From an uncultured Spirochaetota bacterium (GTDB taxonomy: Bacteria; Spirochaetota; Brevinematia; Brevinematales; JAOACQ01), in NCBI GenBank assembly GCA_963783575.1, contig CAWAOD010000004.1, positions 1 through 64,000 of the forward strand: DNA of 64,000 nt, given 5' to 3'. The position numbers and the translations under genes are program-made. Numbering within the stretch: the stretch's first letter is position 1; each line of letters starts with the position of its first letter. Of this stretch, positions 4,993-32,477 are shown one piece after another. The notes beneath the pieces were generated by a model. It was not told the origin of the DNA. It was given only the letters and a program-made list of their open reading frames with translations, and did not search any database.

Positions 4993-5088
4993 AAATTACT
5001 TCTCCTCAGTGCATATATAGTACCAAAATAAGACTAATTTGTCAAATTAATTATATGCGGGTCCGACCTCAAGACATAGGTAACAATT

Positions 5089-5162
5089 CCAGACAGATCA
5101 AAAAAATCAAACTGTTTGGGGATGGAGGATTATTACCTGAAATTAACTTTTTCTACATGGCC
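5089..5162. mobile_element. Orphan right end of the IS1182 element at 21595-23285
   Basis: Near-identical to 23211-23285, ends ctttttctacatggcc, and is again followed by GTTGTACG. Confidence 0.85.
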
Positions 5163-5230
5163 GTTGTACGCTGAAAGTGCACGCGATGTTGGTTGTTCAA
5201 GCGAACCACGGATGGTGAGCTTGAAATTGT

Positions 5231-5902
5231 TTAATTAATTACTTTCTTTATAAAATGGTTAATATAATTTTCAATTAAAGAACTTAAATTTTTTAGGTAT
5301 AGTTGGTATTTTAAGACTTCATATTCGGATAAACCAGGATCGAGATCTTGATGAATTATCAAGTGTCTTTTTTGTAAAATACTATCTAGAATATTAATAT
5401 CAATTTTTTTACCTTCAAAAATATCTTTACCTTCAATCTGCAAAAACAAGTCAATTAATTCTTGTGACCCGGTTTTTCCTATTGGATATTTTGTTTTTAT
5501 CATAAAAGTTGATTGATTTAAATTAGGACTAAAGTGACTTCCTAAGATTTCAATATATTTTTTTATTTTTTCATATTTTGATTGATCGTAAGCTTCATAA
5601 TTAGTTAGTAATTTATCCAATTTTTGTTCAGCGATAAATAATTTAAGAGAATTTAATTTTATAAAATGAGGAAATTTAGTATAGTTCAAATTATTAGATG
5701 TAATATAGTCTTGAAATTCTTTAAGTATGCTTTCTACAAATACTTGAAAACGAGTAACCATTAATGTAACCGCTAATTTTAAGAATAATGTTCTATTATC
5801 AATATTATCTTCTCTTTCTTCATTTTCAGCATATTTAACGAGTGTATCAACTGCAAGTAAAGATATTATAAATTCATTCTTTGACTCACTTAAAAATGCC
5901 AT
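5231..5902 (-). CDS. HEPN-domain protein (MAE_28990/RiboL-PSP-like), putative RNase
   Basis: Rx4H motif KRHLIIH and N-terminal FQVFVE helix; ATG at 5902 overlaps the DUF262 stop. Confidence 0.7.
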   Translation of the reverse strand: MAFLSESKNEFIISLLAVDTLVKYAENEEREDNIDNRTLFLKLAVTLMVTRFQVFVESILKEFQDYITSNNLNYTKFPHFIKLNSLKLFIAEQKLDKLLTNYEAYDQSKYEKIKKYIEILGSHFSPNLNQSTFMIKTKYPIGKTGSQELIDLFLQIEGKDIFEGKKIDINILDSILQKRHLIIHQDLDPGLSEYEVLKYQLYLKNLSSLIENYINHFIKKVIN

Positions 5903-6986
5903 AATTAATTTCCTCAAACCATAACTTTAATCTCGTTTTGATACTTTCATGATCTGATGTTCTTTTTAATATAGCTTCGAAAAATAATGGGTTGTTTACT
6001 AATTTATCTCTTGCTTTAATAATTAAGTCTTTTTTTGATTTTATTTTATTTTTATCTAATCTAGAAAAACTTATTAAAACACAATCCCCATATGCTTTAT
6101 TAATCAAAGTTGAATTTGATGTTGGAAGTCTTAATCCTAGTTCATTACCAAATACAATTTCAATTTTCTCAAAGGTTTCATTAATTAAATTTTCATATTC
6201 AGAAATTTTCTTTTCATCAATATCTTTATTTCTATCCATAAAATCATTTAAAAATGATTTTAAGCTACCACCATAATTATTAATCGAATAATTGCCATTC
6301 TTTCTTACAAATCCCTCATTAAAAGCCAAAAATCTTATTAAAAATTCTATATCAAGAAATCTATCATGAGGCTTTTTTTGATTAAGTAATTTTAATATTA
6401 ATTTTGTTTCAACCATACTTTTTAATTTTGTATTAAGCAATCCTCTATATAAACAATTACGTAATTCTTGATTGTTAAGTGATACAGCACCTCTATTTAA
6501 CCTCATAAAAATATCATATTTAATATCAGGATGGCTATCTTTTTTTATTACATTTATTCTTAGTAGTCCATCTTTAAATAAATCTCTTGGTTTTTGTGGT
6601 AAATCTTTGAATTTTTTTCCATCAAGTTCTTTAATAATTTCAAGTTTTTTAAGGTTATATTCATTTTGATAATAATTTCTTATTGCTAATAATCTTTGTA
6701 AACCATCAACAACAAGCCATTTCCCATTTTCTTCTTCAGAAAAATATAAGGGTGGAATAGGAACATTCATAATAAGAGATTCAATTAATAGAGAACATTT
6801 GTCATCTGTCCAAACTTTATTTCTTTGAAATGGAACCTCAAGAATAATTTTTGGACTTTCTCCAGACATTAATGACCAAATATAATCGACTGAATAATCA
6901 TAAGAAGCTGTTTCAAGTTTTCTTTTTTCTTTAGGAATATCACGTATATTATCTTCTTCATCTAAAAAAGTCTTTTCTTTTTCCAT
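5886..6986 (-). CDS. DUF262 (ParB/GmrS-like) domain protein
   Basis: FQR..VW, DGLQRL and FMRLNRG motifs; ATG at 6986 with GAGAGGA RBS. Confidence 0.9.
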   Translation of the reverse strand: MEKEKTFLDEEDNIRDIPKEKRKLETASYDYSVDYIWSLMSGESPKIILEVPFQRNKVWTDDKCSLLIESLIMNVPIPPLYFSEEENGKWLVVDGLQRLLAIRNYYQNEYNLKKLEIIKELDGKKFKDLPQKPRDLFKDGLLRINVIKKDSHPDIKYDIFMRLNRGAVSLNNQELRNCLYRGLLNTKLKSMVETKLILKLLNQKKPHDRFLDIEFLIRFLAFNEGFVRKNGNYSINNYGGSLKSFLNDFMDRNKDIDEKKISEYENLINETFEKIEIVFGNELGLRLPTSNSTLINKAYGDCVLISFSRLDKNKIKSKKDLIIKARDKLVNNPLFFEAILKRTSDHESIKTRLKLWFEEINYGIFK

Positions 6987-7082
6987 AAATAATCCTCTCA
7001 ATTTCCAAATCTAATATAAATTAATATAGCGAGGCCAAGGATGGCTGAGCATTTAATTTTCTAGCTTGCGCGCACTTTTTGC

Positions 7083-13174: not shown

Positions 13175-14865
13175 CAGACTGTGTGAAAACTCAGTAAAAT
13201 TTTATAGTAAAATCGATTAATTATACAAAAACTCCATTTTTTGATATATTTTTCAAGCTAAAAAAATCTTAGTTTAAAAAATCTATCCGAATACGATAAA
13301 CGATGGTTTATTAGCATCAAACCAGAGTCATAAGTCTCTTTATTCCCAATATATTCAATACTTTTATTAAATTATGAATGAATCCTGCCAAACTGGATTC
13401 CGTCAGAACGCCATCCTTTCCCTTCATTAAAAAATAACTGTAACCCATATTCCTTTTTATCGATCCAAATGGATGTTCACATATCTCTTTCCTTTTCTCT
13501 ATGATCTTTTTCCCGGCTTCAGAACGAATTTTCCTCTTGAAGTTCTCAATTTCTTCTTTTCTAACTGGTACTTTGATACTTCGTCCTTCCACGCTTTCAG
13601 TACACTTATTTCTTACTTCACATTGGCTGCATAAGCCGCACTTGTACCTGACTATCTCTTTTCCTCCATTGACCTTCTCTACTTTTTTCCCATTTCTCAC
13701 TAATGGGTTTCCCTCCGGACAATAATAAACATTTTGTCCCGGATCATATTTGAATTTATCAACCTGGTATTCTTCAGCAGGTACTCCTTTATTATCTTCT
13801 TTGCCTCGAATCCTTGCCTTATGTCCGTCATCCGGATTCGGCATATATACGTTATGTCCCTTATCTATACATTCCAGTATCTGCGGTTCGCTGTAATAAC
13901 CGGCATCCGATACTTTGACCGTTTCAGTCTCTACCTTAAGCTCGTCCTTTATTTCTTCTACTCGGTCACACATTCCTGCCATCTGTTTGATATCATTGTT
14001 TTCATTCGTCACATCAATCACCACAATCAGTTTATTCGCATCATCTACTGCCATCTGCAGATTATATGCAATGTCGGATTTCCCTTTATCATTCATAAAC
14101 CGGCTTTCCGGGTCATTTGAATAATATTTCTCCATTTCAGGATTTCCCTCAAAAATCTTTTTAATAGCCTCAACTTTATCCTTTTTTGTTTTCATTTTCT
14201 TTAAACGTTCCGCTATCTTTCCGGAAAGAAATTCAAATTCATTCTTTTCTTCCTTATCGTTCTTATCCATCTCGTTCAAATATTCTTCGATCTTTTGATC
14301 TATTCTATGTATGATTTCTTCTATGTTTTTCCTATGATAAACATTGTTATTGTGGTTTTGCGCACTGATCTTGGTTCCATCAATTCCAACAACGTCAAAT
14401 GATAAAAGCCCGGCTTTATGACATATCTTCAAAAATTCTCTGAATATCGACTGTATTCCCTTCTTATTATCTTTCCTGAAGTCGGCAATCGTCTTGAAAT
14501 CCGGCGCTAGTCGTCCAGTCAGCCACATCAACTCTGTGTTTCTTCGGCACTCTCTCTCTAATTTCCTGCTTGTCCTGATTTTATTCAAATATCCGTAAAT
14601 ATAGATTTTTAAAAGTATTTCGGATTTATATGAACTTCTGCCGGTTGATGCTTCTTTTACTTTAAAACCAACTCCTTTCATATTTAGCTTATCAACAAAA
14701 ATATCTATAAACCTTACCGGATCTTCTTCTCCTAACAGATCTTCCAGTGTTTCATTGAACAGAACTATCTGATCCCTTGATTCTCCCTCAATATGCTTCA
14801 TCTTTTACTCCGATTATTTTTGTTCTAATAATTATAGCATATTTACTGTGTTTTCACACAGTCTG
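13175..14865 (-). mobile_element. IS1182-family element
   Basis: Perfect 16-bp IR cagactgtgtgaaaac; CAA direct repeat; inserted in a cccttcgtcaagctcaggg REP-like motif. Confidence 0.92.
13317..14801 (-). CDS. IS1182-family transposase
   Basis: LLKIYIYGY, SRKLERE, PDFKTIADFR, IDGTK, DAGY, EHPFGSIK. Confidence 0.93.
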   Translation of the reverse strand: MKHIEGESRDQIVLFNETLEDLLGEEDPVRFIDIFVDKLNMKGVGFKVKEASTGRSSYKSEILLKIYIYGYLNKIRTSRKLERECRRNTELMWLTGRLAPDFKTIADFRKDNKKGIQSIFREFLKICHKAGLLSFDVVGIDGTKISAQNHNNNVYHRKNIEEIIHRIDQKIEEYLNEMDKNDKEEKNEFEFLSGKIAERLKKMKTKKDKVEAIKKIFEGNPEMEKYYSNDPESRFMNDKGKSDIAYNLQMAVDDANKLIVVIDVTNENNDIKQMAGMCDRVEEIKDELKVETETVKVSDAGYYSEPQILECIDKGHNVYMPNPDDGHKARIRGKEDNKGVPAEEYQVDKFKYDPGQNVYYCPEGNPLVRNGKKVEKVNGGKEIVRYKCGLCSQCEVRNKCTESVEGRSIKVPVRKEEIENFKRKIRSEAGKKIIEKRKEICEHPFGSIKRNMGYSYFLMKGKDGVLTESSLAGFIHNLIKVLNILGIKRLMTLV

Positions 14866-14973
14866 CAAGCTCAGGGCAGGCGAAATACGAACAGATCGAT
14901 TTATATGCCACCAATGATTATAAACTAAAACACCTCGTGAAGATATTCAGCTTATCTGGGGAATTATTAACAA

Positions 14974-15092
14974 GTTAGCCGCCTAAACCTCCAACAGTAC
15001 CTATTTTGACTTTTCCGGCTCGCTTGTAATTGGCAATAATCACTCCGCTTTGTTTAATAGAACTCTATATTAATGTAAATGCTGCCGGAATC
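14974..15092 (-). pseudogene. 3' remnant of a RibD-C/DHFR-like cassette gene ending in an R'' site
   Basis: Reads IPAAFTLI*SSIKQSGVIIANYKRAGKVKIGTVGGLGG*, paralogous to 15693-16286; stop TAA lies inside GGCTAAC. Confidence 0.75.
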
Positions 15093-15125
15093 GTATCACA
15101 AAGATCTATCGTTTTAGTTATGCAC

Positions 15126-15681
15126 TCATTTTTTTGTCGGCTCGTAGTAAAGAGCTACTGCACTACAACCAAATGTTTTTGTTTTTAAGAGTTGAAGATT
15201 AACTCTATCCTTGACGTTTTTAAATAATGGCAAGCCGCTTCCTAAAATAATTGGCTGAACGTCAAGCTGGTATTCATCAATTAAGTCAAATTGCGTTAAG
15301 GCTACTATTAAACTTGGGCTGCCAACTAAAATGTTTTTACCCGCTTGTCGCTTGAGTTCTAAAACATCTTCTTTAATGACTTCCTTTTCCAATTTTGTAT
15401 TTTTCCAATCAACATTTTTCAGCGTTCGTGAAAAAACAATCTTTGAAATATTGTCTATTAATACAGCAAATTCATCTGTTGGTTTGTTACCAGTAGGATT
15501 TTTTACCACAGATGGCCAATAACTTTCCATAAGCTGAAATGTTATCCTTCCAAAATATAATGGTGTCTGCGTTACTAAATAGCTCATTGTAATGTTGAAG
15601 TATTTCATCATCTGCAATCATTGCCGTGTGGTCGCAAAACCCGTCCAATGTCATATTGATTGCTGCAATTAGTTTTCTCAT
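15126..15681 (-). pseudogene. RibD-C/DHFR-like protein, frameshifted; followed by R'' site GCATAAC (15117-15123)
   Basis: MRKLIAAINMTLDG in one frame continues as FGRITFQLM...PIILGSG in another. Confidence 0.82.
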
Positions 15682-15692
15682 TTTATTTCTTC

Positions 15693-16286
15693 TTAAGCTC
15701 CAATAGTACCTGTCTTGACTTTTCCGGCTTGTTTGTAATTAGCAATAATCACTCCACTTGGTGTAACCGAACTTTCTATTAATGAAAATGCCGCCGGGAT
15801 CACGCCATTGATAAATAATTTTTTTCCTTTACCAAGAGTCAACGGGTAAATTTTGAGCCAGAGTTCATCCACTAAATCATTCTTAAGTAGCAGCTGGATG
15901 AGCTTAGCACTGCCCCAAACTTTAATGTCGGAGCCTTTTGAATTTTTGAGTTTTTCGATATCTGCCAAGCTTTTGAGGAAAACTGTGTTTTTCCAATCTG
16001 ACTTTTTCATGGTCTTGGACATGACGTATTTTGTGACATCATTGATACCTGGCCATCCATTTTCATGCTCTGGCCAGTAGGAGGCAAAAATCTCAAATGT
16101 TTTTCTGCCCAAAAGAAGGTCTGCAGGTTTCATCTGTTTTTCCATGACCTTACCAATAACATCGTCACCATAAGGCGCAACCCAACCGCCATATTTGAAA
16201 CCGCCTGATGTATCTTCCTCAGGTGCCCCAGGTGCTTGCATTACTCCATCTAGTGTAATCATTGATATGACGATTATTTTTCTCAT
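15693..16286 (-). CDS. RibD-C/dihydrofolate reductase-like protein
   Basis: MITLDGVMQAPG, LLGRKTF, LVDEL..PLTLGKG. Confidence 0.9.
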   Translation of the reverse strand: MRKIIVISMITLDGVMQAPGAPEEDTSGGFKYGGWVAPYGDDVIGKVMEKQMKPADLLLGRKTFEIFASYWPEHENGWPGINDVTKYVMSKTMKKSDWKNTVFLKSLADIEKLKNSKGSDIKVWGSAKLIQLLLKNDLVDELWLKIYPLTLGKGKKLFINGVIPAAFSLIESSVTPSGVIIANYKQAGKVKTGTIGA

Positions 16287-16532
16287 GTCCCGCCTCCTTC
16301 GTTAAAATTACATCCTCAAATGTTTAATGTCTAAAAACATTTTATCATTATCCTATTTTATTAAACCGTCTTTAGGTCAATTAATAAATACTTTAAGAAT
16401 TCTTTTTAATCAAGTAATTCAAACAAAATATTTACCAATAATCAACTAACCGAAAAATATAGCGCGATTTCATATCGTTTCTTTCGCCAGGACGGTGAAA
16501 CTATTTGCTATTATTAAGCCCACAAGTATTCC

Positions 16533-16616
16533 GTTTAACGGTACGTCCGAGTAGAGAAATCAGTATTGGTAGTGTCCTCTTAGCTTTGCGCAGCTCAGCT
16601 TGAACACCAGTTAGGC
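16533..16616 (-). repeat. attC-like site, 84 bp, with a classical-type first half
   Basis: Minus strand GCCTAAC-tggtg-TTCAAGC ... GTTAAAC. Confidence 0.6.
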
Positions 16617-16647
16617 CGCAGAGTGCTGTTGCGGCCTATAACCCTGC

Positions 16648-17034
16648 TTATTGGCCGGCCGGCGGTTGCCACAGTTCTACTTTGTTTCCTTCCGGATCGA
16701 TGACCCATGCAAACTTTCCATAATCGGATTCATCAATCTTTTCGAGAACGTTACAGCCTTCTTCTCGCAAGGCTTTGACCAATCCCTGAAGGTCTTCTAC
16801 TCTATAGTTGACCATGAAAGGAGCAGAGCTCGGAGCAAAGTGCTCGCTTTCTTGCGGATCGATCAACCACGCAGTTGTACCTGCAACAGGCTTGTCCTCG
16901 GCGTCGGTCCAATCGAAGGCAGCTCCGCCCCATTCTTGGACATCGATTCCTAGGTGCCGCTTATACCAAGCCTGTAGCGCCGGAGCAATCTTGGCCTTGA
17001 AGAAGATGCCGCCAATACCAGTGACTCGTTTCAT
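16648..17034 (-). CDS. VOC/glyoxalase-family protein, GC-rich
   Basis: MKRVTGIGGIFF...YGKFAWVIDPEGNKVELW. Confidence 0.9.
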   Translation of the reverse strand: MKRVTGIGGIFFKAKIAPALQAWYKRHLGIDVQEWGGAAFDWTDAEDKPVAGTTAWLIDPQESEHFAPSSAPFMVNYRVEDLQGLVKALREEGCNVLEKIDESDYGKFAWVIDPEGNKVELWQPPAGQ

Positions 17035-17940: not shown

Positions 17941-18185
17941 AGGATGGCGGCTTTATAATAAAGCACCGCACATGGCGTACAACGTGAAGTGTAAACATCG
18001 TTTGCCGGTGCGATCATAGGGAGCATTGGCATGTGTTTTTGCTCTGCAAAAACCATTACAAAGGCAAATGTGGAAATGTCAAGAGTTTTTCCCATACCTG
18101 TACTCGGGTAATTTCCCACCCCTTCCACAAGAGTTTTTCCCATACCTTCCACGGGAGTTTTTCCCATAGGAGGAGGCAAGAATGG

Positions 18186-18935
18186 TTACTCAACCTCCTT
18201 ATTCAAATTTTGTATTCTGTAAGATTCTCCGCTCAAGTTATAAATATTTGAATGATGTAAAAGCCTGTCCAGAAGAGCTGTTGTCATAATCGGGTCTCCC
18301 ATCATTTCAGCCCAATCCTGAAATCCCTTATTCGATGTTATCACTATCGATGTCTTTTCATACAATTCACTTACAAGACTAAAGAATAGATTTGCCTCCT
18401 TCTTTTCGATAGGTGTGTAACCTATCTCATCAATGATTAATAAGTGTGACTTCATCATCCGGTTCAGCCTGAAAGAAGAACTTCTCTGGATGTCCGTTGT
18501 TTTAAGAAACTTAATGAGAGTAGTCATCCTTTCAAAGCAGACAATATATCCCTTTTCAACTGCCCGGATTCCGATACTAATTGACAGATGCGTTTTCCCC
18601 AGCCCCGGAGACCCAAAGAACAACAGGTTATGATGATTATCAATCCAGCGGAAATCCAATAACTGTGAAACATCCATTTTAGATATTCCATTCACTTTTT
18701 CAAAATTAAAACCTTCCACATCTTTGCGGACTGGGAAATGTGCTCCTGCCATATTCCGCTGAAAACGTTTTTCCACTCTATAATTCAATTCCAGAGAAAG
18801 CAGCCTCTGCAAAAAACTCAGATAAGACTCTTTCGCCTTTTCAGCCTCGCCGATTTCATCGTCAATCCGTTTAATCATCCCCTTCAACCCGAGAGTTGCA
18901 AGCTGCGTTATGATTTGTTCTCTTATCTTCAACAT
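18186..18935 (-). CDS. istB: IS21 helper ATPase IstB
   Basis: GSPGLGKT, LLIIDEIGY, TSN, ALLDRLLHH. Confidence 0.95.
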   Translation of the reverse strand: MLKIREQIITQLATLGLKGMIKRIDDEIGEAEKAKESYLSFLQRLLSLELNYRVEKRFQRNMAGAHFPVRKDVEGFNFEKVNGISKMDVSQLLDFRWIDNHHNLLFFGSPGLGKTHLSISIGIRAVEKGYIVCFERMTTLIKFLKTTDIQRSSSFRLNRMMKSHLLIIDEIGYTPIEKKEANLFFSLVSELYEKTSIVITSNKGFQDWAEMMGDPIMTTALLDRLLHHSNIYNLSGESYRIQNLNKEVE

Positions 18936-20482
18936 TGCCGGCCCCCAATGGAACTACAGAGTCTCTGGTATTTCCCGATGTCTGATTTGGCTACTTCCAG
19001 ATAGTGTTCAGGATTCATAAGTGGCCTGACTATCTTTTCTACATTCATAGGTATTTCTAAATGTTCTATTTTCAGACAGTTCCGGTAATTATCCCATAAA
19101 TCCTTCATTGAGTAACTATCATTATCCAGACAGTTTGAGATCGCTTGTGTCAGCTTATCTGTATCAATTATCTTGTCCCTGAAGTATTTTCTTCCGGAAA
19201 GACATTGGTCCCTTACATAACGATTGAACTTCCTGAAATTACATTCAAGAAAATCCTTCCAGCCGGGAATATCAAAGTACCCGCTTACTTCTTCTTTCAA
19301 TAACTGCACAGTCTTTCCCATTTCCCGGATCATTGCCCTGTTGGTTACAATCTGCCCCGGAATCACTGAAAGCCGGTATTCGGCGATTTGCTCACCCGTA
19401 ATCCTGTCAAAGACAAAAAGCAGGCTGTCAGTTTTGTAAATGTCAACCGAACCGTTCCTGTATTTTTCAGGTATATCATACTGGCTTGTGCCCACAGCGA
19501 TCCGGCATTTGTCACTCACACTGCGAGCTTCCCTTGCACCGATCCTGTCCTTACGGAATATAGAATTCCTGACCGGCCGGAGATATGGCCTTTCCGTTTC
19601 AATCTCTATCAGCGGTATTTTCATGGTTGCCTGGGATATTCTCCCGTTGGCTTTTCTTTCCAGCCATTTCAACAGGCTTTCATCTGCTTCCAATAAACTG
19701 TTGAACTCCCTGACCGCAAAAAAACTATACTTGATGAATTTGGCCACATTTTCGATCTTTCCCTTGCTTTCCGGGTCTGAAGGCCGGCATACATACAATT
19801 TAAGACCCATTTCATCTTTGAAATACTGAAAGTCTTTCGTGTAGATGATATCGCCGGAGTTCTCACTCACAACCATCGTGCAGTCCTGATCGATGACAAG
19901 TTCCTGCGGTATCCCGCTCATATATGCGAAACAGTCCAATAGATGATTGATCAGGTCTTCTGTCCGGAATGGCCTCTCCTGGAGGGCCGCATACTTAAAA
20001 CGACTGGCGGATAACACCGCGGCAAATATGTAATACCTTCTGCCATATCTGTCGGTATATTGACCGAAATCAAGCTGGAGCTGCTTTCCATATGGCATGT
20101 CCGGCACTTTTGTGTAATACCGGCGCTTTTCATTCAAGGTAAGCTGCCCGCTTTCAATCAGGTAATGTACGAAATTCCTCATCGTATTTTCATTCGCCGG
20201 AAGTTTGCCTTTTACCTCCAATAAATAGTCATACAAAGCAGACATATTCAGCCGGATGTAATCATTCTTTGCATATACTTTCAATATGTCTGTTTTTATT
20301 CCTTCGAATTCTTTTTCACGGAAAGAGAATTCCATCAGGCTTTTCTGGTATTCGGAATCGTTCATAGCCCAATATTTTCGGACTGTCTTAATATCTATTG
20401 ACAGTTCCCGGGATACACCATTTTTACTTTTCCCCAAAAGTTTCAGTTTTTTTATGTCCTGATACATAATATTTTTCACCAT
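18929..20482 (-). CDS. istA: IS21 transposase IstA
   Basis: QLDFG, PQELVID, PESKGKIE. Confidence 0.94.
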   Translation of the reverse strand: MVKNIMYQDIKKLKLLGKSKNGVSRELSIDIKTVRKYWAMNDSEYQKSLMEFSFREKEFEGIKTDILKVYAKNDYIRLNMSALYDYLLEVKGKLPANENTMRNFVHYLIESGQLTLNEKRRYYTKVPDMPYGKQLQLDFGQYTDRYGRRYYIFAAVLSASRFKYAALQERPFRTEDLINHLLDCFAYMSGIPQELVIDQDCTMVVSENSGDIIYTKDFQYFKDEMGLKLYVCRPSDPESKGKIENVAKFIKYSFFAVREFNSLLEADESLLKWLERKANGRISQATMKIPLIEIETERPYLRPVRNSIFRKDRIGAREARSVSDKCRIAVGTSQYDIPEKYRNGSVDIYKTDSLLFVFDRITGEQIAEYRLSVIPGQIVTNRAMIREMGKTVQLLKEEVSGYFDIPGWKDFLECNFRKFNRYVRDQCLSGRKYFRDKIIDTDKLTQAISNCLDNDSYSMKDLWDNYRNCLKIEHLEIPMNVEKIVRPLMNPEHYLEVAKSDIGKYQRLCSSIGGRQC

Positions 20483-20762
20483 TCCTGCCTTCCTTTAATG
20501 AATTTTCATTAAAGGTAATCTTCAAGCCTCTCTATGGGAAATCTGTTTGTGACAGGTATGGGAATTTCATTTATTGCTACCCTGGTAAATTAGTTTATCA
20601 TTTCCAAAATGTGCCGAAGGCCAAAGGGGCGACAAAGCGCTTACACTGGGTTGTACGCCGTTGCTTGTCGATTATTAAATAATTTTTACCACTAACCACG
20701 ATGGGGAGTTGATAATTGACTATTCATTCAAATTTGAATACATTATATTAAGGAGGATGATT

Positions 20763-21227
20763 ATGTCAATAATTGTTGATTTCAAAAAAGTATCCAAGGT
20801 TGGTCTAGAATCTTCCCCTGTATCAGAAGCGCTTGCCGGTTTGCGCGCTAATGAATCCCGATTCTTAAAGAACAAATTCAATCATGATTTTTCAGTAAAA
20901 GCTGCAAGCGAAAGCCAAGACACTTTAGACTATGTAAACCGAATTCTGAAAAACGAAAGAGATATTGAGATCGTTTCAAAACCTCTTGAGACCTCATTAT
21001 TTCAAGTGGGGAACATCAAATATGCTTATGTTTTCTATGAGAATGGCCTTGGGATAAACGTTATGTATACGATTGATGATCCCAAGAAGCGAGCTGTAGG
21101 TTTTAAACTTTCAGAAGGGATGGAAGTACCAAAAGAATTAGAAGGAAAATTTAGGTTTGCAAGGCAAAAGTCTAAACTGGCTGGAGCTATTCGTGGTTCA
21201 TTTTTAGTGATTAAGGGAGATTATTAG
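20763..21227 (+). CDS. Conserved hypothetical protein, inverted inside cassette B3 (20650-21355)
   Basis: AGGAGG RBS, own TTGACT-17-TACATT promoter; 154 aa with LAGLRANE and KRAVGFKLS motifs. Confidence 0.75.
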   Translation: MSIIVDFKKVSKVGLESSPVSEALAGLRANESRFLKNKFNHDFSVKAASESQDTLDYVNRILKNERDIEIVSKPLETSLFQVGNIKYAYVFYENGLGINVMYTIDDPKKRAVGFKLSEGMEVPKELEGKFRFARQKSKLAGAIRGSFLVIKGDY

Positions 21228-21348
21228 GATTGGTATGATCTATAGAATATTTAACAGATTATAACTCACAAATAATAAATCAATTATCCACACTAATTCT
21301 TCAGATGTCGGATTAAAGAAAAATATAAATTTCTGGTTGAGCAAAGAC

Positions 21349-21594
21349 GTACAACGTTGCAGCCATAAGAATCCCACAAGCCTTAGAGCTAGCCCCGCGC
21401 GCTTAGGCTTGCAAATGTGGTGAGCCCGTAAACAATGATTTCTATTTTATTAATCATCATAGTCAATTTGAACTCCTTCCTCTTTATCAAAAAGTAAATA
21501 CGGGCGAACCCGAGGAGCGCAGGAAAAACTTTTTCTTCTTCTCCGTTATGCCCCGAAAAGTTTTTTCGAGCACCGAAGAGTTATAGCCGCGGTT
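21349..21594 (-). repeat. Long attC-like site (about 250 bp), copy 1
   Basis: Highly similar to 25734-25985; AAC...tatagccgcgGTT ends. Confidence 0.82.
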
Positions 21595-23285
21595 GAGCCT
21601 GTAGAAAAAGTCCGTCATTCATGTACAGAATATCGTATATACTTTAAAATATATTGGAAATAAAATCAAGAGGTAAAAGCAATTATGGCAAGATATAAGA
21701 AAGTTAATTACGATCAAATGGAACTCATTCCTGTATCATTCGACGAGCAGATAATTCCCGGAACCTTCGAATATACATTGAGCTTTCTTGTCGACAATAA
21801 AATTGATCTTAAAATCTTTGAGAATAAGTATAAGAACGACGCTACCGGTGCCCCGGCTTATAATCCGTGGGTTATGCTGAAGATAATACTCTACAGCTAT
21901 TCCCGCGGTATTTTTACATCACGTGAAATCGAGTATTTGTGTAAAACGAATATTATAGCCAAAGCCCTTTCTGCCAATTCAATACCGCACTTTACTTCCA
22001 TCGCCGATTTTGTATCATCGATGAAAAATGAGATAAATAACGTTTTCCTGAATATATTAATGGTTTGTGACGAACTGAACCTCATAGGCGGTGACATGTT
22101 CGCGCTGGACGGGTGTAAATTATCATCGAATGCATCGAAGGAATGGAGCGGAACATTTAAGGATTTGAGGAAGAAAAAAAGAGAAGCTGGAAAACCTGGT
22201 TAAGGAAATGCTTGATGAACATGAAAAGCGTGATCAGGATGGCGGTTTTCCTGAGAAGAAGAAGGAAAAGGATCTTGCAAGAATTGAAAAAATTTTAAAG
22301 AAAGCGGAAAAGATAGAAAAGTTTCTGGAAAGTGAAAAACCCAAAGACAAGGCACGGCATGGCGAAAAACAGTCCAATGTCACTGACAACGAGAGTGCGA
22401 AAATAAAGAGTTCACATGGTGTTATCCAGGGCTACAACGGACTTTCTGTAGTGGATTCGAAATATCAGGTTGTGGTATATCCGGAAGCTTTCGGCAGCGG
22501 GTCGGAAGGAGAATTCCTAAAAGGCATGGTCCGTAAAACAAAAGTAATGATGGGAAATCTGGGAAAAGATATAAGCGGTGGGATAGTTCTGGCGGACACC
22601 AATTATTTCAGTGCCCTGTGATACCGGATAATCATTTCCGTAAGCGGGATGCACGTTTCAGGGATATGGACAGGTTCAAACCTGCAAAGAAAGGACAATA
22701 TACAATTGATGATTTTCAATATGATCCGGAAAATAATGTTTATATATGCAAAAAAGGAGAGGAACTCAGGTTCAGATATAACCATACTGTTAATCATATT
22801 ACATACGCGAAATATATCTGCCGGTTATCGGCCTGCCGTAATTGTCCGTTCCGGAAAGACTGCTTAAAAAAGGAGACGACAAAATACCGCACATTGCAAA
22901 GGCCGTTAAATGCAGATAACAGACATTACTCGGATGAGATGAAAAAGTTCATAGACAAACCTGAAGGCAGAAAGCTTTATGCGAAAAGAATGGCTATAGT
23001 TGAGCCTGTATTCGGTAATATCAGGGCATGTAAAGGTATGGATCGATTTACGTTGAGGGGAAAGGGAAAAGTGAATATTCAATGGGTATTATATAATACT
23101 GTGCACAATATCGGGAAAATTCAGGTCTATGGAGGTATATAATGGCATAGTGATGGAATAAAAACAGTTTTGCCGGTAAATTCAGCCCGGTTTTATAAAA
23201 ATAAAGTAATTCCAGACAGATCAAAAAAAACAAACTGTTTGGGAATGTAGGATTATTACCTGAAATTAACTTTTTCTACATGGCC
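21595..23285 (+). mobile_element. IS1182-family element inserted at the GTT core
   Basis: IR tgtagaaaaagt/actttttctaca; GTT(G) duplicated on both sides. Confidence 0.88.
21685..23142 (+). pseudogene. IS1182 transposase in three pieces
   Basis: MLKIILYSY/LDGCK, GYNG/ADTNY and VEPVFGNI motifs split across ORFs 21685, 22208 and 22618. Confidence 0.88.
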
Positions 23286-23701
23286 GTTGTACGAAGGGCA
23301 CGACATATTATAAAAACCGCCACGGACGGCGGATATTAATTTATATGCTATAAAATTATTCTAATGAATTATTATTAATTACAAAATTATTTAGAATTTG
23401 TAATAGACTTTTTTGACCACAAAATTGTATTCCTTTTTTTAGGTAATATAAATGATAACCTGGTTTAACTAACTTACTGAATACTAGGAAATAAAGGTCT
23501 TGTTTAGAATAAAATTTGATTAATTCATTAAAAACTTCTGAATATAATTTAAAATAACCAATTTCACATAAAGCGCATAAAGAATAGATTGCTTTATTAG
23601 ATAAAGAATTTGTTATTTTGTCAGTAATTTCATTTTGAACATCATTATAAGATTCTTTTTCGAATCTATTAACAAAGTCTAAATATAATATTAAATAATT
23701 A

Positions 23702-25565
23702 GTGCCTGAACGGAAACTCCAATTTTAAAAAATTTCTAAATCAAAAGCTCAGTTATGCTATTTTCCTGATTACAAAAATTTTTCCTGAAACAAAACTTAT
23801 TAAATACTTTGCACCGTATCTAAGAATTAATACAAAAAAAACCAAAATATAACATTTTAAAAGCTTATGGGCAGACTATACCCTTAGATATCAAATTAGC
23901 CGGAAAATCTATGCTGCCTTCATAATTTTCTTTTTTCCCGGGAGGCGTGCCTCTCTTTCCTGCCTCTTTATCTCTTTCTGCACAAGGATATGTCCCATAA
24001 TCTGAATGTTCCTGGCGACAAAAGACAAACTGACATACCTCTTAAACCCAACTATTCCATGGTCAAGGCATCTGTCCAAACCATGATTTTCCATGGCGCT
24101 GATCCCTGACTCCACAGCTCTATGTGCCCGTTTTGCCACCCGGTACTCCTCTGTTTTTTCCCGCTCCTTTTCATCAATCGTTAGCTTGCCTTTCCTTGTC
24201 ATAATCAGTTTATCCACCATTTTTCCCAGTTTGCTCTTGTTTTCAGGACTGTAAAATCCTTTATCATAGCTCACCTGTCTGATGTTATTAAATACAGAAA
24301 TAGTTTCTTCCATAATACTAACTGCCACCGCTTCGTCAGTCTTCTTTTCCATAACCATGTGATTAAGCATAAAACCAAACTGATCCTGCACCACACAAAC
24401 CCGGACTCCAAGTTCCTGTGGTACTCCGGCTTTTCCTTTACTGATCCACTCTGTATGAGGCTCGAAAATCGAAAATATTTTCTCTTCGTGATGGATAACC
24501 TCACCTTTCAGTACCCGTCTGTTGACTTGATCCATCAGCTTTAGAGCCAGCCTAATATAATGTTCTAATGTCATTTCCAATGGTATATTTGTAACCATCT
24601 TTAGAGAATCTGTTACTTTCAAGAGAATATTTTCGATATCCTTGAGATAATTCCTGTATTCCTTTTTTATCCGTTTGTCACTTTTACCTATCTTTACTTG
24701 ATCTTTTGAAGTCGATCGTTTCAGCCTTTGTATGCTCATAACTTTTTTTTTAAGCTTCCCGATAGTATGTTTCCCCTGGCGAAAACCTGTTAGACCTGCA
24801 TTTTTAAAGAATCCGACTATACCTGTAATTACCTTTCTCATGGCATCAAACAGAAGACTGATATCTGTCGGGAAATGAACGTCTGTTTCAACAACAAAGG
24901 AATCAACCTTCACTTTTAAACCTTTTTTTGCTTTTTCCCCAATAAGATCGTGGCCGGCTTTAACAACCACTTCATTAATCTTTGATAGTATTTCAGGAGT
25001 GAATAGAGAAATGTTCTCCCTGAGTGTCTGCAAAGCATATCTATCGACAGTAAACTCAGTTTTGCCAAGCATCTGCCTTATAGCTTTGTGATTATTCGCC
25101 TGATCCTGGAGTTTGTCATAGTCCCAGTTGCAATTCAATCGCAGCATTCCCATCACAAAGATTTCCCATATACTCATCCCCTTTCTTCCGATTCTTTTCT
25201 TTTTTTTATCTGGTATCATTTCCTCAAATATCTTGAATATTTTGTCCTTGATTTCAGGATTGCAATATATATATTTCAGGCCCATAAGCAGCTTTGGAAC
25301 CTCGTCACGGCAAGTTAAATCAATCACTATTTCACTGATATCAACTTCACCGATCTTTTTCTGTACTTCTTCGTTTTGTCTCATAAATTTTTCCTCGAAG
25401 ATTTAAAAAATTATATTTTTGTCGGGTTGATGCATGTCCATATCTGATAATATATTATAGCATTTTTATTCGGTTTTGTATTGCTTTTTTATTCAAATCT
25501 TCAATTTTATTTTATGCCATAATTCCCTTGCTAGTACTGCATTATCTGTATTTCCGTTCAGACAC
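23702..25565 (-). mobile_element. IS5-like/ISNCY insertion sequence
   Basis: IR gtgYctgaacggaaa; 6-bp direct repeat TAATTA. Confidence 0.88.
23909..25384 (-). CDS. DDE transposase (IS5-like/ISNCY)
   Basis: VDSFVVETDVHFPTD, YDKGFYS, RAVESGIS. Confidence 0.9.
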   Translation of the reverse strand: MRQNEEVQKKIGEVDISEIVIDLTCRDEVPKLLMGLKYIYCNPEIKDKIFKIFEEMIPDKKKKRIGRKGMSIWEIFVMGMLRLNCNWDYDKLQDQANNHKAIRQMLGKTEFTVDRYALQTLRENISLFTPEILSKINEVVVKAGHDLIGEKAKKGLKVKVDSFVVETDVHFPTDISLLFDAMRKVITGIVGFFKNAGLTGFRQGKHTIGKLKKKVMSIQRLKRSTSKDQVKIGKSDKRIKKEYRNYLKDIENILLKVTDSLKMVTNIPLEMTLEHYIRLALKLMDQVNRRVLKGEVIHHEEKIFSIFEPHTEWISKGKAGVPQELGVRVCVVQDQFGFMLNHMVMEKKTDEAVAVSIMEETISVFNNIRQVSYDKGFYSPENKSKLGKMVDKLIMTRKGKLTIDEKEREKTEEYRVAKRAHRAVESGISAMENHGLDRCLDHGIVGFKRYVSLSFVARNIQIMGHILVQKEIKRQEREARLPGKKKIMKAA

Positions 25566-25733
25566 TAATTAATTGAACTTGCTGAACCTTCATTGATATT
25601 AACATGAACAGAACTTCGGGCTTGTACTACTATACCGTCAGAGACTTCTATTTCTAACATAATCACCTCTCTATGATTTTTCAATCAAAAATATTTTCAG
25701 TTAACTTGTTTTAATTAACCCAGCAACGATTGC

Positions 25734-25985
25734 GTTTAACGGTGCGGCTATACGACATTTGCAAGCCTTAGCACCAGCCCCGCGCGCTTAGGCTTGCAAA
25801 TGTGGTGAGCCCGTAAACAATGATTTCTATTTTATTAATCATCATAGTAAATTTGAACTCCTTCCTCTTTATCAAAAAGTAAATACGGACGAACCCGAGG
25901 AGCGCAGGAAAAACTTTTCTCTTTCTCCTCCGTTACGCCCTGAAAAGTTTTTTCGAGCACCGGAGTGATATAGCCGCGGTTAAGT
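25734..25985 (-). repeat. Long attC-like site (252 bp), copy 2, intact
   Basis: Minus strand ACTTAAC (RYYYAAC) ... GTTAAAC (GTTRRRY); terminal stem aaccgcggctata/tatagccgcaccgtt; internal hairpins. Confidence 0.85.
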
Positions 25986-26846
25986 GAAGTGTTTGCCATG
26001 TATTCTAAACATTTTTGTATCAATAATAAACTCAAATCCAGTTACTTTCAACCAGCTATTAATGCCTGTAATTAGCACAAAAATGATTTCAATATAATAA
26101 GATAATAATTTAGTATTTATTTTATAATATTTAAGACATTTTACTAAGTTATATTTGGGTATATCTCCAAAATCATCAACAATAAATTCATCTTTTGACA
26201 AATGTTTTAATAAAATATATCGATCAGGAAATTCTTTATTTTCTGGATTCATATCTTTTCCACTTTCTAATTTATAACCTTGTGCAACTTCATGTGTGTC
26301 GATATACAATTCATTTATTTTTTGTGCAGAATCAAGTTCTCTCAAACATTTTAAAACACTTATTATAGCAATAATTTGTTCATCTTCCATTTTTTCAAGA
26401 ATAAATGGATTTTTTAATAATTCTTGCAAAGCTTTTTCACTTATCTCCCAATGCTTAAAAACTTGAAAACCTAGATATTTGTTAGTACTAAGTTGATTTT
26501 CTAATATTTCTTTCTTTAATGAAAGAAAATTATTGATAGCTTTACTTGAGAATTCTTTCTTTTCTAATGAATACACGATTTTTTGAAGTTGATTTAATAC
26601 TGAAAGAAATTCACGATCTACAAGCATTTTAGCATAATCAATAATTTCTTTATTCAATTTTTTATGAGAGAACGATTTTACTGTTTCATAAAAAAAATAT
26701 AGTAAAGGTATAGCAATAAAAGCTGTAGCAATGTTAATAATTAAATCATGTAATTTTATATTAAGAGAAGATAGAAAATATAATATAAAACCAATAATTA
26801 AAGCAACAAGATATGGCAATGTTTTTAATAATATTTTTTTAAACAT
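25980..26846 (-). CDS. Hypothetical protein with two N-terminal TM helices; first cassette (B1) of array B
   Basis: 288 aa from ATG 26846; stop TAA lies within the R'' site; very AT-rich. Confidence 0.75.
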   Translation of the reverse strand: MFKKILLKTLPYLVALIIGFILYFLSSLNIKLHDLIINIATAFIAIPLLYFFYETVKSFSHKKLNKEIIDYAKMLVDREFLSVLNQLQKIVYSLEKKEFSSKAINNFLSLKKEILENQLSTNKYLGFQVFKHWEISEKALQELLKNPFILEKMEDEQIIAIISVLKCLRELDSAQKINELYIDTHEVAQGYKLESGKDMNPENKEFPDRYILLKHLSKDEFIVDDFGDIPKYNLVKCLKYYKINTKLLSYYIEIIFVLITGINSWLKVTGFEFIIDTKMFRIHGKHFT

Positions 26847-26883
26847 TAATTTATTCCTATTAATAAAAAACGGCAAACATTTC

Positions 26884-26925
26884 ACTTAACTCGATATATA
26901 CGAAGTTTACTTCGTATATTACCCC
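26884..26925 (-). promoter_or_regulatory. attI-like site of array B
   Basis: GTTAAGT core next to palindrome atatacgaagt-tt-acttcgtatat; homologous to 7083-7116. Confidence 0.55.
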
Positions 26926-27209
26926 TAAAAACCTGTTTTTTACGAAGTAATTAATAAATATTGTTTATAAAAAATCAGCGGACTTTGTATATCCATAATT
27001 GCTTTATTACTAACATAAGTGTAAATCTCTGTATTTTTAATGCTTTTAAACAATAGTTCTTATTATATCGTAAATCAGTTTTGTAATTTAAACATTATAT
27101 TATAACATAGTTGATCCGGAATAGTATCACCCATAAGGGGGGATATGGATAATCAAACTTTTAATGATTATAATGTTATACAATTATTAAACCGCAAAAA
27201 CACTTAAAT

Positions 27210-27266
27210 TCTTCCGGTCAACGGACATAAATATTTTTAGCATTTTAATTTAATGAGTGTCAAGAA
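27210..27266 (-). promoter_or_regulatory. Conserved leader and promoter of array B
   Basis: TTGACA (27263-27258), 18 bp, TGcTAAAAA; tcttccggtcaacgga box shared with 7183. Confidence 0.65.
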
Positions 27267-27432
27267 TCATTTTATAAACAGACATAACCTCTCTTCCACC
27301 AACAGGTGACTTTTGTAAATATTCAGAACAACCAGTCAATAACCAAAAAGAACCGGTGAATATAAGTTAATATTGAGCATAAAAGAATTGTTTTAATTAG
27401 GAGTGAAGCCAAGTAACAATGGGAGCAAGGAC

Positions 27433-27581
27433 GGGTTCACTGAAAAATGAGTTAAAATTTGAAAACTATAACCAACCGTTTCTAATTGCATTTATAACTC
27501 ATTGTTATAAAATAGGATAGGACACTAATAAAATACTGTTTATTAAACATTTTAAGATTTATGCTGATTTTCAATGAACCC
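27433..27581. mobile_element. 149-bp MITE, copy 2
   Basis: Near-identical to 11187-11335; flanks AAGGAC/AAGTAC. Confidence 0.88.
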
Positions 27582-27620
27582 AAGTACGCTCATTGAGTCA
27601 ACCCTATAATCACATAGCCA

Positions 27621-27894
27621 GCCGAACGTTAGTTCGGCACCGCAACGGTTGCGCAAAGATTCACGAGATAGTAAAGCAGAGATGAAGTGTCCTTTTTGAG
27701 AGCGAATTGGAGGAGCGCCAAGCCGATCTGTACGGAATAAAATTCCGTTTGAAACACGGATGTGAGTTAAAGGCGGGCAAAACCAAGTAACATAGGGAAC
27801 AGACTGTTCCATGAAATCTACTTTAGCACATCAACTGTGGCGAACTCCGTTCGCCAAACGCAACGATTGCGCAAATGACCCGCCCCTTGGGCGG
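27621..27894. repeat. Two copies of a multi-hairpin intergenic repeat
   Basis: gccgaac..gttcggc plus cgcaacgRttgcgcaaa (plus ccgccc..gggcgg); recurs at 63894-63969. Confidence 0.6.
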
Positions 27895-28050
27895 CACTTT
27901 CCTGATGGTCTTAGGAAGAAAGGAAGTATTACTCCCTTTTTTATAAAAGAGAACAGTATACAAATGATTGAGTTTATCCCCGGATTGATGTATAATATTA
28001 CCTAAAATTTTCTTTAAGTCATTAAATAAGATTTTATTGAGGAGCACTTT

Positions 28051-30289: not shown

Positions 30290-31786
30290 ATGCTTAAAGA
30301 AATCGATCTCTCGGTGAGACTTGAAGCCGCGGAATATAAAAAGATTATGCCTGACCTTGAATTGAGAATTGGCGAACTTCAGAGGCTTGCCAGGGATTTT
30401 AATATTCCGATCCTCATTATTTTTGAGGGCCTGGAAGCTAGCGGAAAAGGAACTCTTATCAATAAGCTCATCATGCCTCTTGACCCTAGAGGCTTTAAGG
30501 TATACTCAACCCTTCCTCCGAATAATGATGAAAAGCTGAGGCCTTTTTTATGGCGTTTCTGGATAAAAACTCCCGCGAAGGGGAGGATTGTTATATTTGA
30601 CAGGAGCTGGTACCAGAGACTTCTTATCGATCTCGCCGGAAAGATAATAAAAAAATATGACACCGCAGCATCCATTTATGATATAAAAGCATTTGAAAGG
30701 CAGTTAATTGAAAGCGGCTATCTTCTGATTAAATTCTGGCTCCATATCAGCAGGGAAGAACAGGCTTCCAGGCTTTTAAAACTGGAGGAGAAAAAATCGA
30801 CGGCATGGAGAGTCACAAAAGAAGACTGGGCTGTTAACCGTAAATATGAAAAATACCAAACTGCGATTGAAGAAATAATTGAGAAAACCGGGACATCTCA
30901 ATCTCCCTGGAATATAATCGAAGCTGATGACGAAAGATATGCAACGGTTAAAATATTCAATAAAACCATAGAAATTATTGAAAAAAGGATTAAAAACAAG
31001 GTTGAAAATGAGTTAGGCATGGATAATCATAATAAAGTAGCAGTTCAAAGAGCAGAAATAATTTCTTCATTTCTTGATAAAGTGGATTTATCCAGAAATG
31101 CGACAAAAGATGATTATGAAAAAAGGATTGGCAAATACCAGAAAAAATTCAGGGAAATCGAATATGAGATCTATACAAAAAGAATCCCGGTTATAATTGT
31201 CTTTGAAGGATGGGATGCGGCAGGTAAGGGCGGCTGTATTAAAAGACTGACCCGCAACCTTGACCCGAGAGGATATGAGGTTATCCCGGTCGGGCCTCCG
31301 GGAGATACAGATAAGACGCATCATTATTTGTGGCGTTTCTGGAATACAATCCCGAAAGGCGGGCATATCGGTATTTATGACCGCTCCTGGTACGGTAGGG
31401 TGCTTGTTGAAAGAGTTGAAAATCTTTGTTCCGCCCGTGACTGGAAAAGAGCATATAAAGAGATCAATGAGTTTGAGGAACACCTGTCAAACAGCGGTTA
31501 TGTGATTATAAAGTTCTGGCTTCATATTGATAAAGACGAACAGCTTAAAAGATTTCAGAGCAGGGAAAACGATCCCTACAAGAAATGGAAAATTACTGAT
31601 GAAGATTACCGGAATAGAAAATCCTGGGATCTATACTATCAGGCTGTGGATGAGATGATATACCGCACCGATACGATTCATGCGCCCTGGGTCATAGTTG
31701 AATCGAATTCCAAATATTATTCGAGATTAAAGGTTATGAAAACAGTGATAGAAACGGTACAGAACCGGATTAAACTGGGAAGTTAG
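30290..31786 (+). CDS. pap: Two-domain PPK2 (polyphosphate:AMP phosphotransferase)
   Basis: Tandem FEG..A.GKG, DPRG and DRSWY motifs. Confidence 0.88.
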   Translation: MLKEIDLSVRLEAAEYKKIMPDLELRIGELQRLARDFNIPILIIFEGLEASGKGTLINKLIMPLDPRGFKVYSTLPPNNDEKLRPFLWRFWIKTPAKGRIVIFDRSWYQRLLIDLAGKIIKKYDTAASIYDIKAFERQLIESGYLLIKFWLHISREEQASRLLKLEEKKSTAWRVTKEDWAVNRKYEKYQTAIEEIIEKTGTSQSPWNIIEADDERYATVKIFNKTIEIIEKRIKNKVENELGMDNHNKVAVQRAEIISSFLDKVDLSRNATKDDYEKRIGKYQKKFREIEYEIYTKRIPVIIVFEGWDAAGKGGCIKRLTRNLDPRGYEVIPVGPPGDTDKTHHYLWRFWNTIPKGGHIGIYDRSWYGRVLVERVENLCSARDWKRAYKEINEFEEHLSNSGYVIIKFWLHIDKDEQLKRFQSRENDPYKKWKITDEDYRNRKSWDLYYQAVDEMIYRTDTIHAPWVIVESNSKYYSRLKVMKTVIETVQNRIKLGS

Positions 31787-31887
31787 TCGGTCAATCATCA
31801 GTGAATTAGTCGAAAATCGATTAGTCAGATAGAGAATATCATCAGTTATCGGCTAGCCGGTTGACAAACTAATAAAGGAGGGATTAT

Positions 31888-32346
31888 ATGGAAATTAAAA
31901 TCACCAGCCCTGCTTTTTCAGAAGGTGGAATTATACCGGCAAATTATTCTTACAACCATGAAAATATATCCCCGCCGCTTGATTGGACAAACGTTCCGGC
32001 TGAAACTAAAAGCATTGCCCTGATCTGTAATGATCCCGACGCGCCTGGCGGATCATGGATCCATTGGGTAATTTATAACATTCCTGCCTGGACCGGAAGC
32101 CTGCCGGAAAAAATACCCCAGGGCAAAGTCCTGGAAAAAGGTATCAAGCAGGGCATTAATGATTTCCGGAACATAGGATATGACGGGCCATCTCCGCCAA
32201 GCGGCACTCACCGCTATGTGTTTACCATATACGCACTGGATATGCAGATTCCTCTAGAGGCAGGCGCAACTGAAGCCCAGCTGATAAAAGCTACGACCGG
32301 CCATATTCTTTCTCAAGGCCAGCTTACAGGTAAATACAAAAAATAA
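31888..32346 (+). CDS. YbhB/YbcL (PEBP/Raf kinase inhibitor-like) protein
   Basis: DPDAP..WIHW, GPSPPSGTHRY. Confidence 0.92.
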   Translation: MEIKITSPAFSEGGIIPANYSYNHENISPPLDWTNVPAETKSIALICNDPDAPGGSWIHWVIYNIPAWTGSLPEKIPQGKVLEKGIKQGINDFRNIGYDGPSPPSGTHRYVFTIYALDMQIPLEAGATEAQLIKATTGHILSQGQLTGKYKK

Positions 32347-32477
32347 AAGTATTGTTAAACAAATTATTTATTCAACAAACCTAAGGTAATTGTTCCCGGT
32401 CAAGCAGCCTGATAGTGAAATTTTTATCCGATGTTTCCTGATTTTTTTCAATTCCTGCCGATGATAAATTATAATAA

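Follow-up and report, generated by a model that had tools for sequence, protein, structure and literature searches.

Work on canonical integrons has given their cassette recombination sites, attC, a length of 57-141 bp (PMC5371416, in part; here and below, "in part" marks a source of which a portion of the text was used), and an extrahelical G directs the choice of strand in these sites (PMC2727003, in part). The IntI-specific region of the integrase has been called necessary for integron recombination (PMC9668308 and PMC4889954, both in part), and the corresponding insertion is not fully conserved in one integron-like subgroup (PMC8138268, in part). The additional IntI domain and the extrahelical G are both held essential, and detection tools rest on both. 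In Bacteroidetes and Firmicutes, integrons are also said to be very rare (PMC9024848). In Bacteroidales, the intergenic repeats of rAID-1, an element recognised by over 44% identity to BF9343_RS08045 and by a cargo of interbacterial immunity genes, have been called "reminiscent of integrons" (10.1101/471110, in part). The subject here is a pair of long repeats in a 64,000-nucleotide stretch of DNA from an uncultured Spirochaetota bacterium (the window: positions 1 to 64,000 of contig CAWAOD010000004.1, assembly GCA_963783575.1). To judge from their sequence and setting, these repeats are very probably the recombination sites that end the gene cassettes of an integron-like array.

An earlier note on this DNA had pointed to two highly similar stretches and read them as attC-like sites of unusual length. 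The likeness was borne out, with 93.7% identity over 223 nt in an alignment. Measured from AAC to GTT, the two copies are:

21353..21594, minus strand: copy 1, a 242-bp site with a degenerate 3' arm, cut from its own cassette by an IS1182; it retains a Shine-Dalgarno sequence (21480-21473) and a 23-codon frame (21460-21389).
25738..25981, minus strand: copy 2, an intact 244-bp recombination site (AAC-A-9-bp stem ... stem-ACC-GTT) with three branches.

Both belong to a larger set than the two originally named, since the genome of the window (G000; 4.9 Mb in 18 contigs, labelled C4, C5 and so on) holds 13 full-length copies of 240-245 bp, about 90% alike, along with about a dozen partial ones. 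A flagellar switch protein likewise marks this genome as likely Spirochaetota. These copies cluster between short co-oriented genes on C5, C10, C16, C9, C12, C13 and C4. On the minus strand of the window, a gene ends just before the AAC end of the site and the next gene begins past the GTT at the other end. The R' triplet GTT is kept in all 13 full-length copies and the R'' triplet AAC in 11. Because the cassette genes, the invariant GTT and the linkage of cassette to site all agree, the minus strand of the window is the top strand of the sites, which reverses the orientation first proposed. The reading as attC-like cassette sites was supported by co-oriented single-gene cassettes that each end in a site with its crossover at G|TT, and the claim of exceptional length also held, in that 240-245 bp with a branched interior stands against 57-141 bp.

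The ends of the cassettes carry much of this argument. They were compared in 20 distinct cassettes of G000 and a related genome, G011 (27 listed, 7 duplicates dropped), leaving out ends occupied by insertion sequences (ISs) and G011 gaps over 2.6 kb. Inverted arms of about 20 bp at cassette start and end matched at 273 of 340 positions, against a permutation mean of 141 and a maximum of 191 in 10,000. Position 11 of these arms matched in none of the 20, the start being A and the end C in 18, so that the pair reads A·C on the top strand and G·T on the bottom strand. In other phyla, 20 pairs of consecutive sites from 7 of 37 loci likewise had A at position 11 of the start (20/20) and never a match there.

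Cassette orders in G011 show where the mobile unit ends. One 162-bp site occurs eight times in that genome, always behind the same cassette end and before six different starts, and two other sites each retain their upstream cassette and swap the downstream one. Since G011 sites stay with the upstream cassette and change their downstream neighbour, the mobile unit, as read from these junctions, is a cassette plus the site that follows it, joined at G|TT at the 3' end of the site. Repeat assembly errors could yield some of the G011 cassette orders, but not the sharp boundary.

The recombinase that heads such arrays differs from IntI. Between aligned blocks, 68 residues of VchIntIA correspond to 26 in this family, so that about 42 residues of the IntI domain are missing. 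No TIGR02249 match over the cut-off was found in G000, the main recombinase piece scoring 160.8 bits against 265 with a profile gap at 174-233. Its nearest solved structure is nevertheless VchIntIA (PDB 2a3v), and the Foldseek list showed only tyrosine recombinases. An extra N-terminal domain has a confident predicted fold and weak HARP matches; a HARP identity was considered and rejected, the matches being sub-threshold only (20 of 39 rows at E<=0.1) and the Atlas matches below 0.9 and unnamed.

Relatives of this family were found at 80 loci in Bacteroidota, Bacillota, Nitrospirota, Ignavibacteriota, Spirochaetota and archaea. Scanned for hairpins, the 279 kb downstream of these relatives yielded 100 matches, led by spacers 1/5, 2/5 and 3/5, and the 499 kb upstream yielded 65 scattered ones. 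Clear sites at the relatives' loci are 56-151 bp long, and arrays of 56-71-bp sites are headed by the same recombinase family. Clear arrays or sites also occur in groups reported to be almost integron-free, namely at loci L034, L027, L030 and L041 (Bacillota), L042 (an archaeon), L018 (Nitrospirota) and L046 (Ignavibacteriota).

Within G000, the array on C5 begins directly behind a co-oriented recombinase gene, with an attI-like site at C5:458246, and a decayed version of this arrangement heads the array in the window:

26976..27050, minus strand: 3' remnant of a tyrosine recombinase, with no open frame (profile positions 335-359 of 370; hmmsearch of alignment A2 in six frames, domain E 0.0017).
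26890..26930, minus strand: attI-like platform ending TATATCGA|GTT, with the crossover G at 26890; the platform that follows the C5 recombinase has this 11-mer at its end.
25979..26890, minus strand: body of cassette 1, with a 301-aa open reading frame (ORF; 26885-25980) of no known family and with arms at its two ends that can pair at 19 of 21 positions.

The match to the recombinase remnant is weak alone, yet its place immediately before the attI-like site mirrors that of the C5 gene. The platform 11-mer, TATATCGA, has 11 matches in the genome, 5 of which have a cassette end downstream that matches 18-20 of 21 positions. In cassette 1, which has a G+C content of 23%, the stop codon of the ORF lies inside the R'' box. 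Because the attI-like crossover at 26890 follows the recombinase remnant and precedes cassette 1, copy 2 is, on this order of parts, the site that closes the first cassette of a platform now decayed. Scattered through G000 are at least nine attI-like platforms (window 26890; C5:359000, 458246 and 114977; C9:382286 and 129773; C13:218524; C16:120156 and 32451). The genome has only one near-complete recombinase gene, which is frameshifted; G011 has four copies of the gene, and its open frames for the family span 353-365 aa.

The interior of the sites was described in the earlier note as a terminal stem enclosing three sub-stems. Folded as DNA on both strands, copy 2 gave z scores of -3.7 and -4.3, with none of 200 shuffles as good, and an outer stem with three branches:

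25908..25954, minus strand: branch 1, an A/T stem with a purine-rich loop; no compensatory change among the 13 copies.
25804..25895, minus strand: branch 2, which closes a 70-nt AT-rich insert.
25755..25803, minus strand: branch 3, which occurs in three block variants that alter both partners in 9 of its 18 pairs.

Copy 1 does not fold well (z was -0.4, 65 of 200 shuffles did no worse, and the outer stem had a probability near 0 on either strand), because some 25 nt at its 21353 end are degenerate. The proposed structure therefore stands for copy 2 and falls for copy 1; the terminal stem as quoted and its acatttgcaagcct arm are present in copy 2 only, where the gcccgta/tacgggc stem also occurs, with one mismatch. 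Across the 13 copies, 96.5% of cells are paired in this structure, against 36-44% for slid partners. The compensatory changes for which the earlier note had suggested a search were found in branch 3 and are almost confined to it, with none for branches 1 and 2 within G000. Even there the changes come down to two swapped blocks, and template switching could have produced these with no selection at work. In transcript sense, the RNA of the site folds at -85.5 kcal/mol (z -4.9). The outer-stem bulge is A only (T on the top strand) and is absent from C16:118828, and no conserved extrahelical G was found in the L box of the bottom strand in the 13 copies or the G011 sites.

Shorter sites of the same kind place the 244-bp form in context. 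The 22 distinct sites of G011 (130-215 bp) mostly have the three-branch plan and mostly lack the bulge, and their outer stem varies freely in sequence while it stays paired. G000 also holds sites of 145-218 bp, with insert-less short sites in the same arrays, and a further relative, G005, has a 198-bp site with a long first branch that resembles branch 1 and with no insert. A stricter genome-wide motif scan of G000 returned 19 sites, where two shuffled genomes gave 4 and 2. A metagenome scan with a 29-nt insert motif gave no match. The 244-bp form is thus the shared three-branch plan plus an AT-rich insert of about 70 nt in the loop of branch 2. The lineage-specific attC class, set apart by its length, that had been proposed does not stand, the 244-bp sites being the long end of one 130-245-bp series. 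It is also unlikely, judging by the sites at other loci, that the branches are needed for recombination, since the same recombinase family heads arrays of simple 56-71-bp sites.

What the insert might do is suggested by a short reading frame within it:

25768..25865, minus strand: Shine-Dalgarno-like sequence (25865-25858) and putatively translated 25-codon frame (25845-25768) in copy 2, with its stop 27 nt before the crossover GTT.

Under fixed criteria (a Shine-Dalgarno match of at least 4, at least 15 codons and a stop at -40 to -20 from the crossover), such a mini-frame is present in 20 of 22 sites of at least 200 bp and in none of 24 shorter ones. In all 13 full-length copies it comprises 23-27 codons and crosses branch 3 to a stop codon that lies 27 or 33 nt short of the crossover. 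Of the eight insert types, six pass, compared with 1.2-8.6% of dinucleotide-shuffled inserts of the six passing types and none of nine reversed inserts. A stop in the required window is available in one frame only, and all six passing types use that frame. The inserts are 65-77 nt long and most pairs of types align no better than shuffles; among family members, the distance from Shine-Dalgarno to closing arm is 48 nt in 16 of 17, and the part upstream varies. Within the 244-bp family, the stop codon alternates between TGA and TAA, and changes in length fall upstream of the start. A 212-bp site of G011 passes the same criteria with no AT-rich insert. At C16:32200-32460 (minus strand), an attI-like site heads a decayed cassette, and 36 bp at C16:32265 are 94% like a long-site insert, which could be a source or a remnant.

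A conserved mini-frame peptide was rejected as an explanation, the products being unlike one another; since the peptides share nothing, translation itself would be the point. There is precedent, in that short ORFs in attC are reported to relieve a block on downstream translation or to raise it (PMC8876359, section 3.2, and PMC11511950, both in part), and that an untranslated 3' stretch cut downstream expression fourfold (PMC11511950, in part). A search of the site for a terminator found none. That the mini-frame is translated and useful is, on these sequence patterns, about an even call. For the further role that the earlier note had raised for the branches, support is confined to one loop, where it points to a translation signal and not to host-factor binding.

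Several observations weigh against this account of the insert and of the array around it. The criteria for a mini-frame were set once the data had been inspected, and a single family supplies 14 of the 20 positives. Two of the insert types, at C10:82589 and in a 204-bp site of G011, do not pass, both being related to types that do, and a 192-bp site in another relative, G002, has an AT-rich insert without such a frame. An out-of-sample hunt in 43 genomes of the class yielded no new complete site of at least 200 bp that could confirm the mini-frame. The predicted accessibility of the Shine-Dalgarno sequence is uneven (0.04-0.83), most downstream cassettes have a ribosome-binding site of their own, and attC sites are minor determinants of polarity in class 1 arrays, where their deletion matters in a minority of cassettes (PMC11511950, in part). 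As for recombination, the only near-complete recombinase gene of G000, that on C5, is frameshifted, by mutation or assembly error, and folding in array context favours the bottom strand inconsistently.

Other explanations were also weighed. These could be cassette sites of just this kind whose long interior is neutral accretion, that is, captured gene starts or filler in a tolerant loop, with idle mini-frames. Captured gene starts would bring a Shine-Dalgarno sequence, a start and stop-free codons at no cost, substitutions in the mini-frame are mostly non-synonymous, and the insert-less short sites sit alongside the long ones; moreover, deletion of a 65-bp terminal structure from a Vibrio site changed recombination less than 2.5-fold (PMC2727003, in part). 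Such accretion would not by itself account for six positive types that all lie in frame with the sole available stop (about 1 in 700 if independent), for inserts of 65-77 nt that mostly cannot be aligned, or for a stop that alternates between TGA and TAA while length changes stay upstream of the start. We regard it as unlikely, yet as an explanation to be taken seriously. An internal promoter in the AT-rich insert, restarting transcription for distal cassettes, would fit the base composition and the TATAAT that, in the 218-bp and 204-bp types, is accompanied by a plausible -35, and copy 2 has one weak match; by the sigma-70 consensus, the only one used, the best score beats shuffles (p<0.05) in just 1 of 13 sites, none of the 244-bp family, and matches around copy 2 are at chance (14 against 11.6 ± 4.2). 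A promoter role is accordingly improbable.

Two further explanations concern what the repeats are rather than what fills them. They might be canonical attC sites with an outsized terminal structure, served by a true IntI that lies elsewhere or was lost, an idea to which the AAC and GTT triplets, the gene-then-site order, the asymmetry on the same arms and the structural nearness to VchIntIA all lend something. Against it stand the absence from the genome of a TIGR02249 match over the cut-off, the lack of a conserved extrahelical G, and the same site geometry behind insert-less recombinases in other phyla, which make it very improbable. A miniature inverted-repeat transposable element (MITE) or structured RNA that inserts between genes by itself, the alternative that the earlier note had named against its own reading, could draw on 13 copies about 90% alike and a strong RNA fold (z -4.9). 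It fails on its flanks, which are cassette-specific inverted arms instead of direct repeats, on the confinement of copies to arrays in one orientation to the genes, on the G011 site that stays with its upstream cassette, and on an Rfam scan of the window that gave no match at gathering score; it is largely refuted and scarcely credible.

The reading that we favour, with some reserve, is that these are cassette sites of an integron-like array with an insert-less, co-oriented recombinase, and that their length comes largely from an insert of about 70 nt that likely relays translation past the folded site. By analogy and from modelled folds, recombination would likely proceed through a folded single strand. 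The bottom strand (plus strand of the window) would fold, and the recombinase would bind the end arm and the inner stem across an uneven spacer and cut at the triplet. As there is no extrahelical G to read, two features would single out a strand: the uneven spacer, and position 11, where the bottom strand has G·T and the top strand A·C. Long end arms could make the excised circle fold well, which would favour insertion over excision and stabilise arrays. In modelled excised circles the core is paired with p of at least 0.91 in 9 of 10 on either strand, against 0.01-0.98 in the array, and this circular form slightly favours the bottom strand. Ribosomes on the mini-frame would, in turn, melt branch 3 and cover an otherwise long, untranslated and strongly folded gap in the RNA.

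More broadly, the sites, as their sequences have it, work like attC but fail attC membership, and are the long variant of a little-described platform. It is conceivable, though rather doubtful, that Spirochaetota, Bacteroidota, Bacillota, Nitrospirota and archaea share a second kind of integron that recombines folded cassette sites by reading a long cassette-end arm with a fixed G·T wobble, and does so with neither the IntI domain nor extrahelical bases, and that its largest sites have repeatedly gained a ribosome-relay module by which each cassette tunes expression of the next. Cassette orders are shuffled in a relative whose enzymes are intact although its arrays lack both supposedly essential features, so that the need for these features can be put to a direct test; for strand choice, the position-11 mismatch is a defined candidate that can be mutated. 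The variable interior of att sites, which is generally regarded as dispensable, gains a possible concrete function in the mini-frames, and the natural series from 130 to 245 bp, with and without insert, bears on how arrays avoid silencing their distal genes.

Downstream of cassette 1, the array in the window has been much altered:

23909..25384, minus strand: ISNCY transposase that interrupts the cassette that follows; the arms flanking it do not match each other.
21595..23285, plus strand: IS1182 that entered copy 1 at the AAC triplet and has GTT on both sides; its transposase is split into three.
20650..21355, minus strand: cassette with an ORF opposed to the array (20709-21227, plus strand).
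17981..20652, minus strand: third site of the same kind, about 140 bp, split by an IS21 (18071-20606, 5-bp duplication).

The unmatched arms suggest that sequence was probably lost around the ISNCY insertion. A gene set against its array is also found in the cassette at C10:79256-79723, and the inverted end arms could allow inversion. Among the IS1182 ends located by BLAST, each of the 8 left ends directly adjoins a site's AAC triplet; GTT follows each of the 19 right ends, in nearly every case with a cassette-type arm. The element thus inserts in one orientation at AAC, in G000 (window 21595-23285 and 5085-5163, for example) and likewise at G011 loci L118-L131, and orphan right ends mark deletions. 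IS21 lies inside several sites (window 18071-20606; C9:124998-127560; C10:73162; C13:210400; C5:112650); one arm of branch 1 resembles an IS21 end, and the copy at C10:78993 has a short IS21-end stretch there.

Other genes in the arrays include possible defence functions. A two-gene unit at window 5231-7001 (minus strand) encodes GmrSD_N and RiboL-PSP HEPN domains, its first gene matching PADLOC NsnA and PD-T4-2_A; its end coincides with an orphan IS1182 end bearing a cassette arm, which makes it a probable cassette-borne defence unit. PADLOC gave matches for 6 of 16 array proteins. Array genes with such matches include a PDC-S14 (a strong match), a PbeA-like helicase and an ankyrin protein (C9:179246-180139; C5:469521-472079 and 468593-469162). 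Several toxin-antitoxin-like gene pairs were recognised by eye in the C5, C9, C10, C12 and C13 arrays. A G+C-richer glyoxalase gene at window 16530-17034 (minus strand) is a possible import from a canonical integron, and behind it what looks like a canonical attC, of which only the first half is present, runs into the 3' end of a site of the local type. Five copies of a tandem set of tyrosine recombinase genes (C5:3150-4882, 14757-16489 and 30657-32404; C15:6549-8290 and 26267-28023) resemble RIT elements.

In a literature search that covered few subscription papers, no description was found of the site geometry, the position-11 mismatch, such lengths, the inserts or the IS1182 targeting. With canonical integrons (class 1; the VCR and VchIntIA of Vibrio cholerae, PDB 2a3v), the locus shares the AAC and GTT triplets, the G|TT crossover, gene-then-site cassettes, an attI beside a tyrosine recombinase (here attI-like by sequence) and, in larger sites, a branched terminal structure (PMC2727003, in part). 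It differs in its 240-245-bp sites as against 57-141 bp, in having no conserved extrahelical G, in a spacer of 1 against 3 nt, in cassette-end arms of about 20 bp with a fixed mismatch, and in a recombinase that lacks about 42 IntI-domain residues and bears an N-terminal domain weakly like HARP. The chromosomal integrons of Treponema (PMC3607928, in part) are likely from the same phylum and have a co-oriented integrase, read in the direction of attI and the cassettes; their sites, at 63-132 bp and with a protruding G, differ from those here on both counts.

The rAID-1 elements of Bacteroidales (10.1101/471110, in part) have a 5' XerD-family recombinase, at least two co-directional genes of low G+C and repeated intergenic sequences, as the arrays here do. 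The present family occurs in 36 of 81 sampled Bacteroidales genomes, near the reported 226 of 423, and the two are likened by layout and frequency; in the portion used, rAID-1 is described in Bacteroidales only, in an account without site structure, crossover, length or mini-frame. The mini-frames themselves are closest to ORF-11 and ORF-17 of attI1 and the short ORFs of attC (PMC8876359 and PMC11511950, both in part), where again it is translation of a short frame, and not its peptide, that helps downstream cassettes. Those frames are occasional and act by re-initiation, whereas here a dedicated insert, with its own putative Shine-Dalgarno sequence and in several unalignable forms, is carried by nearly all long sites.

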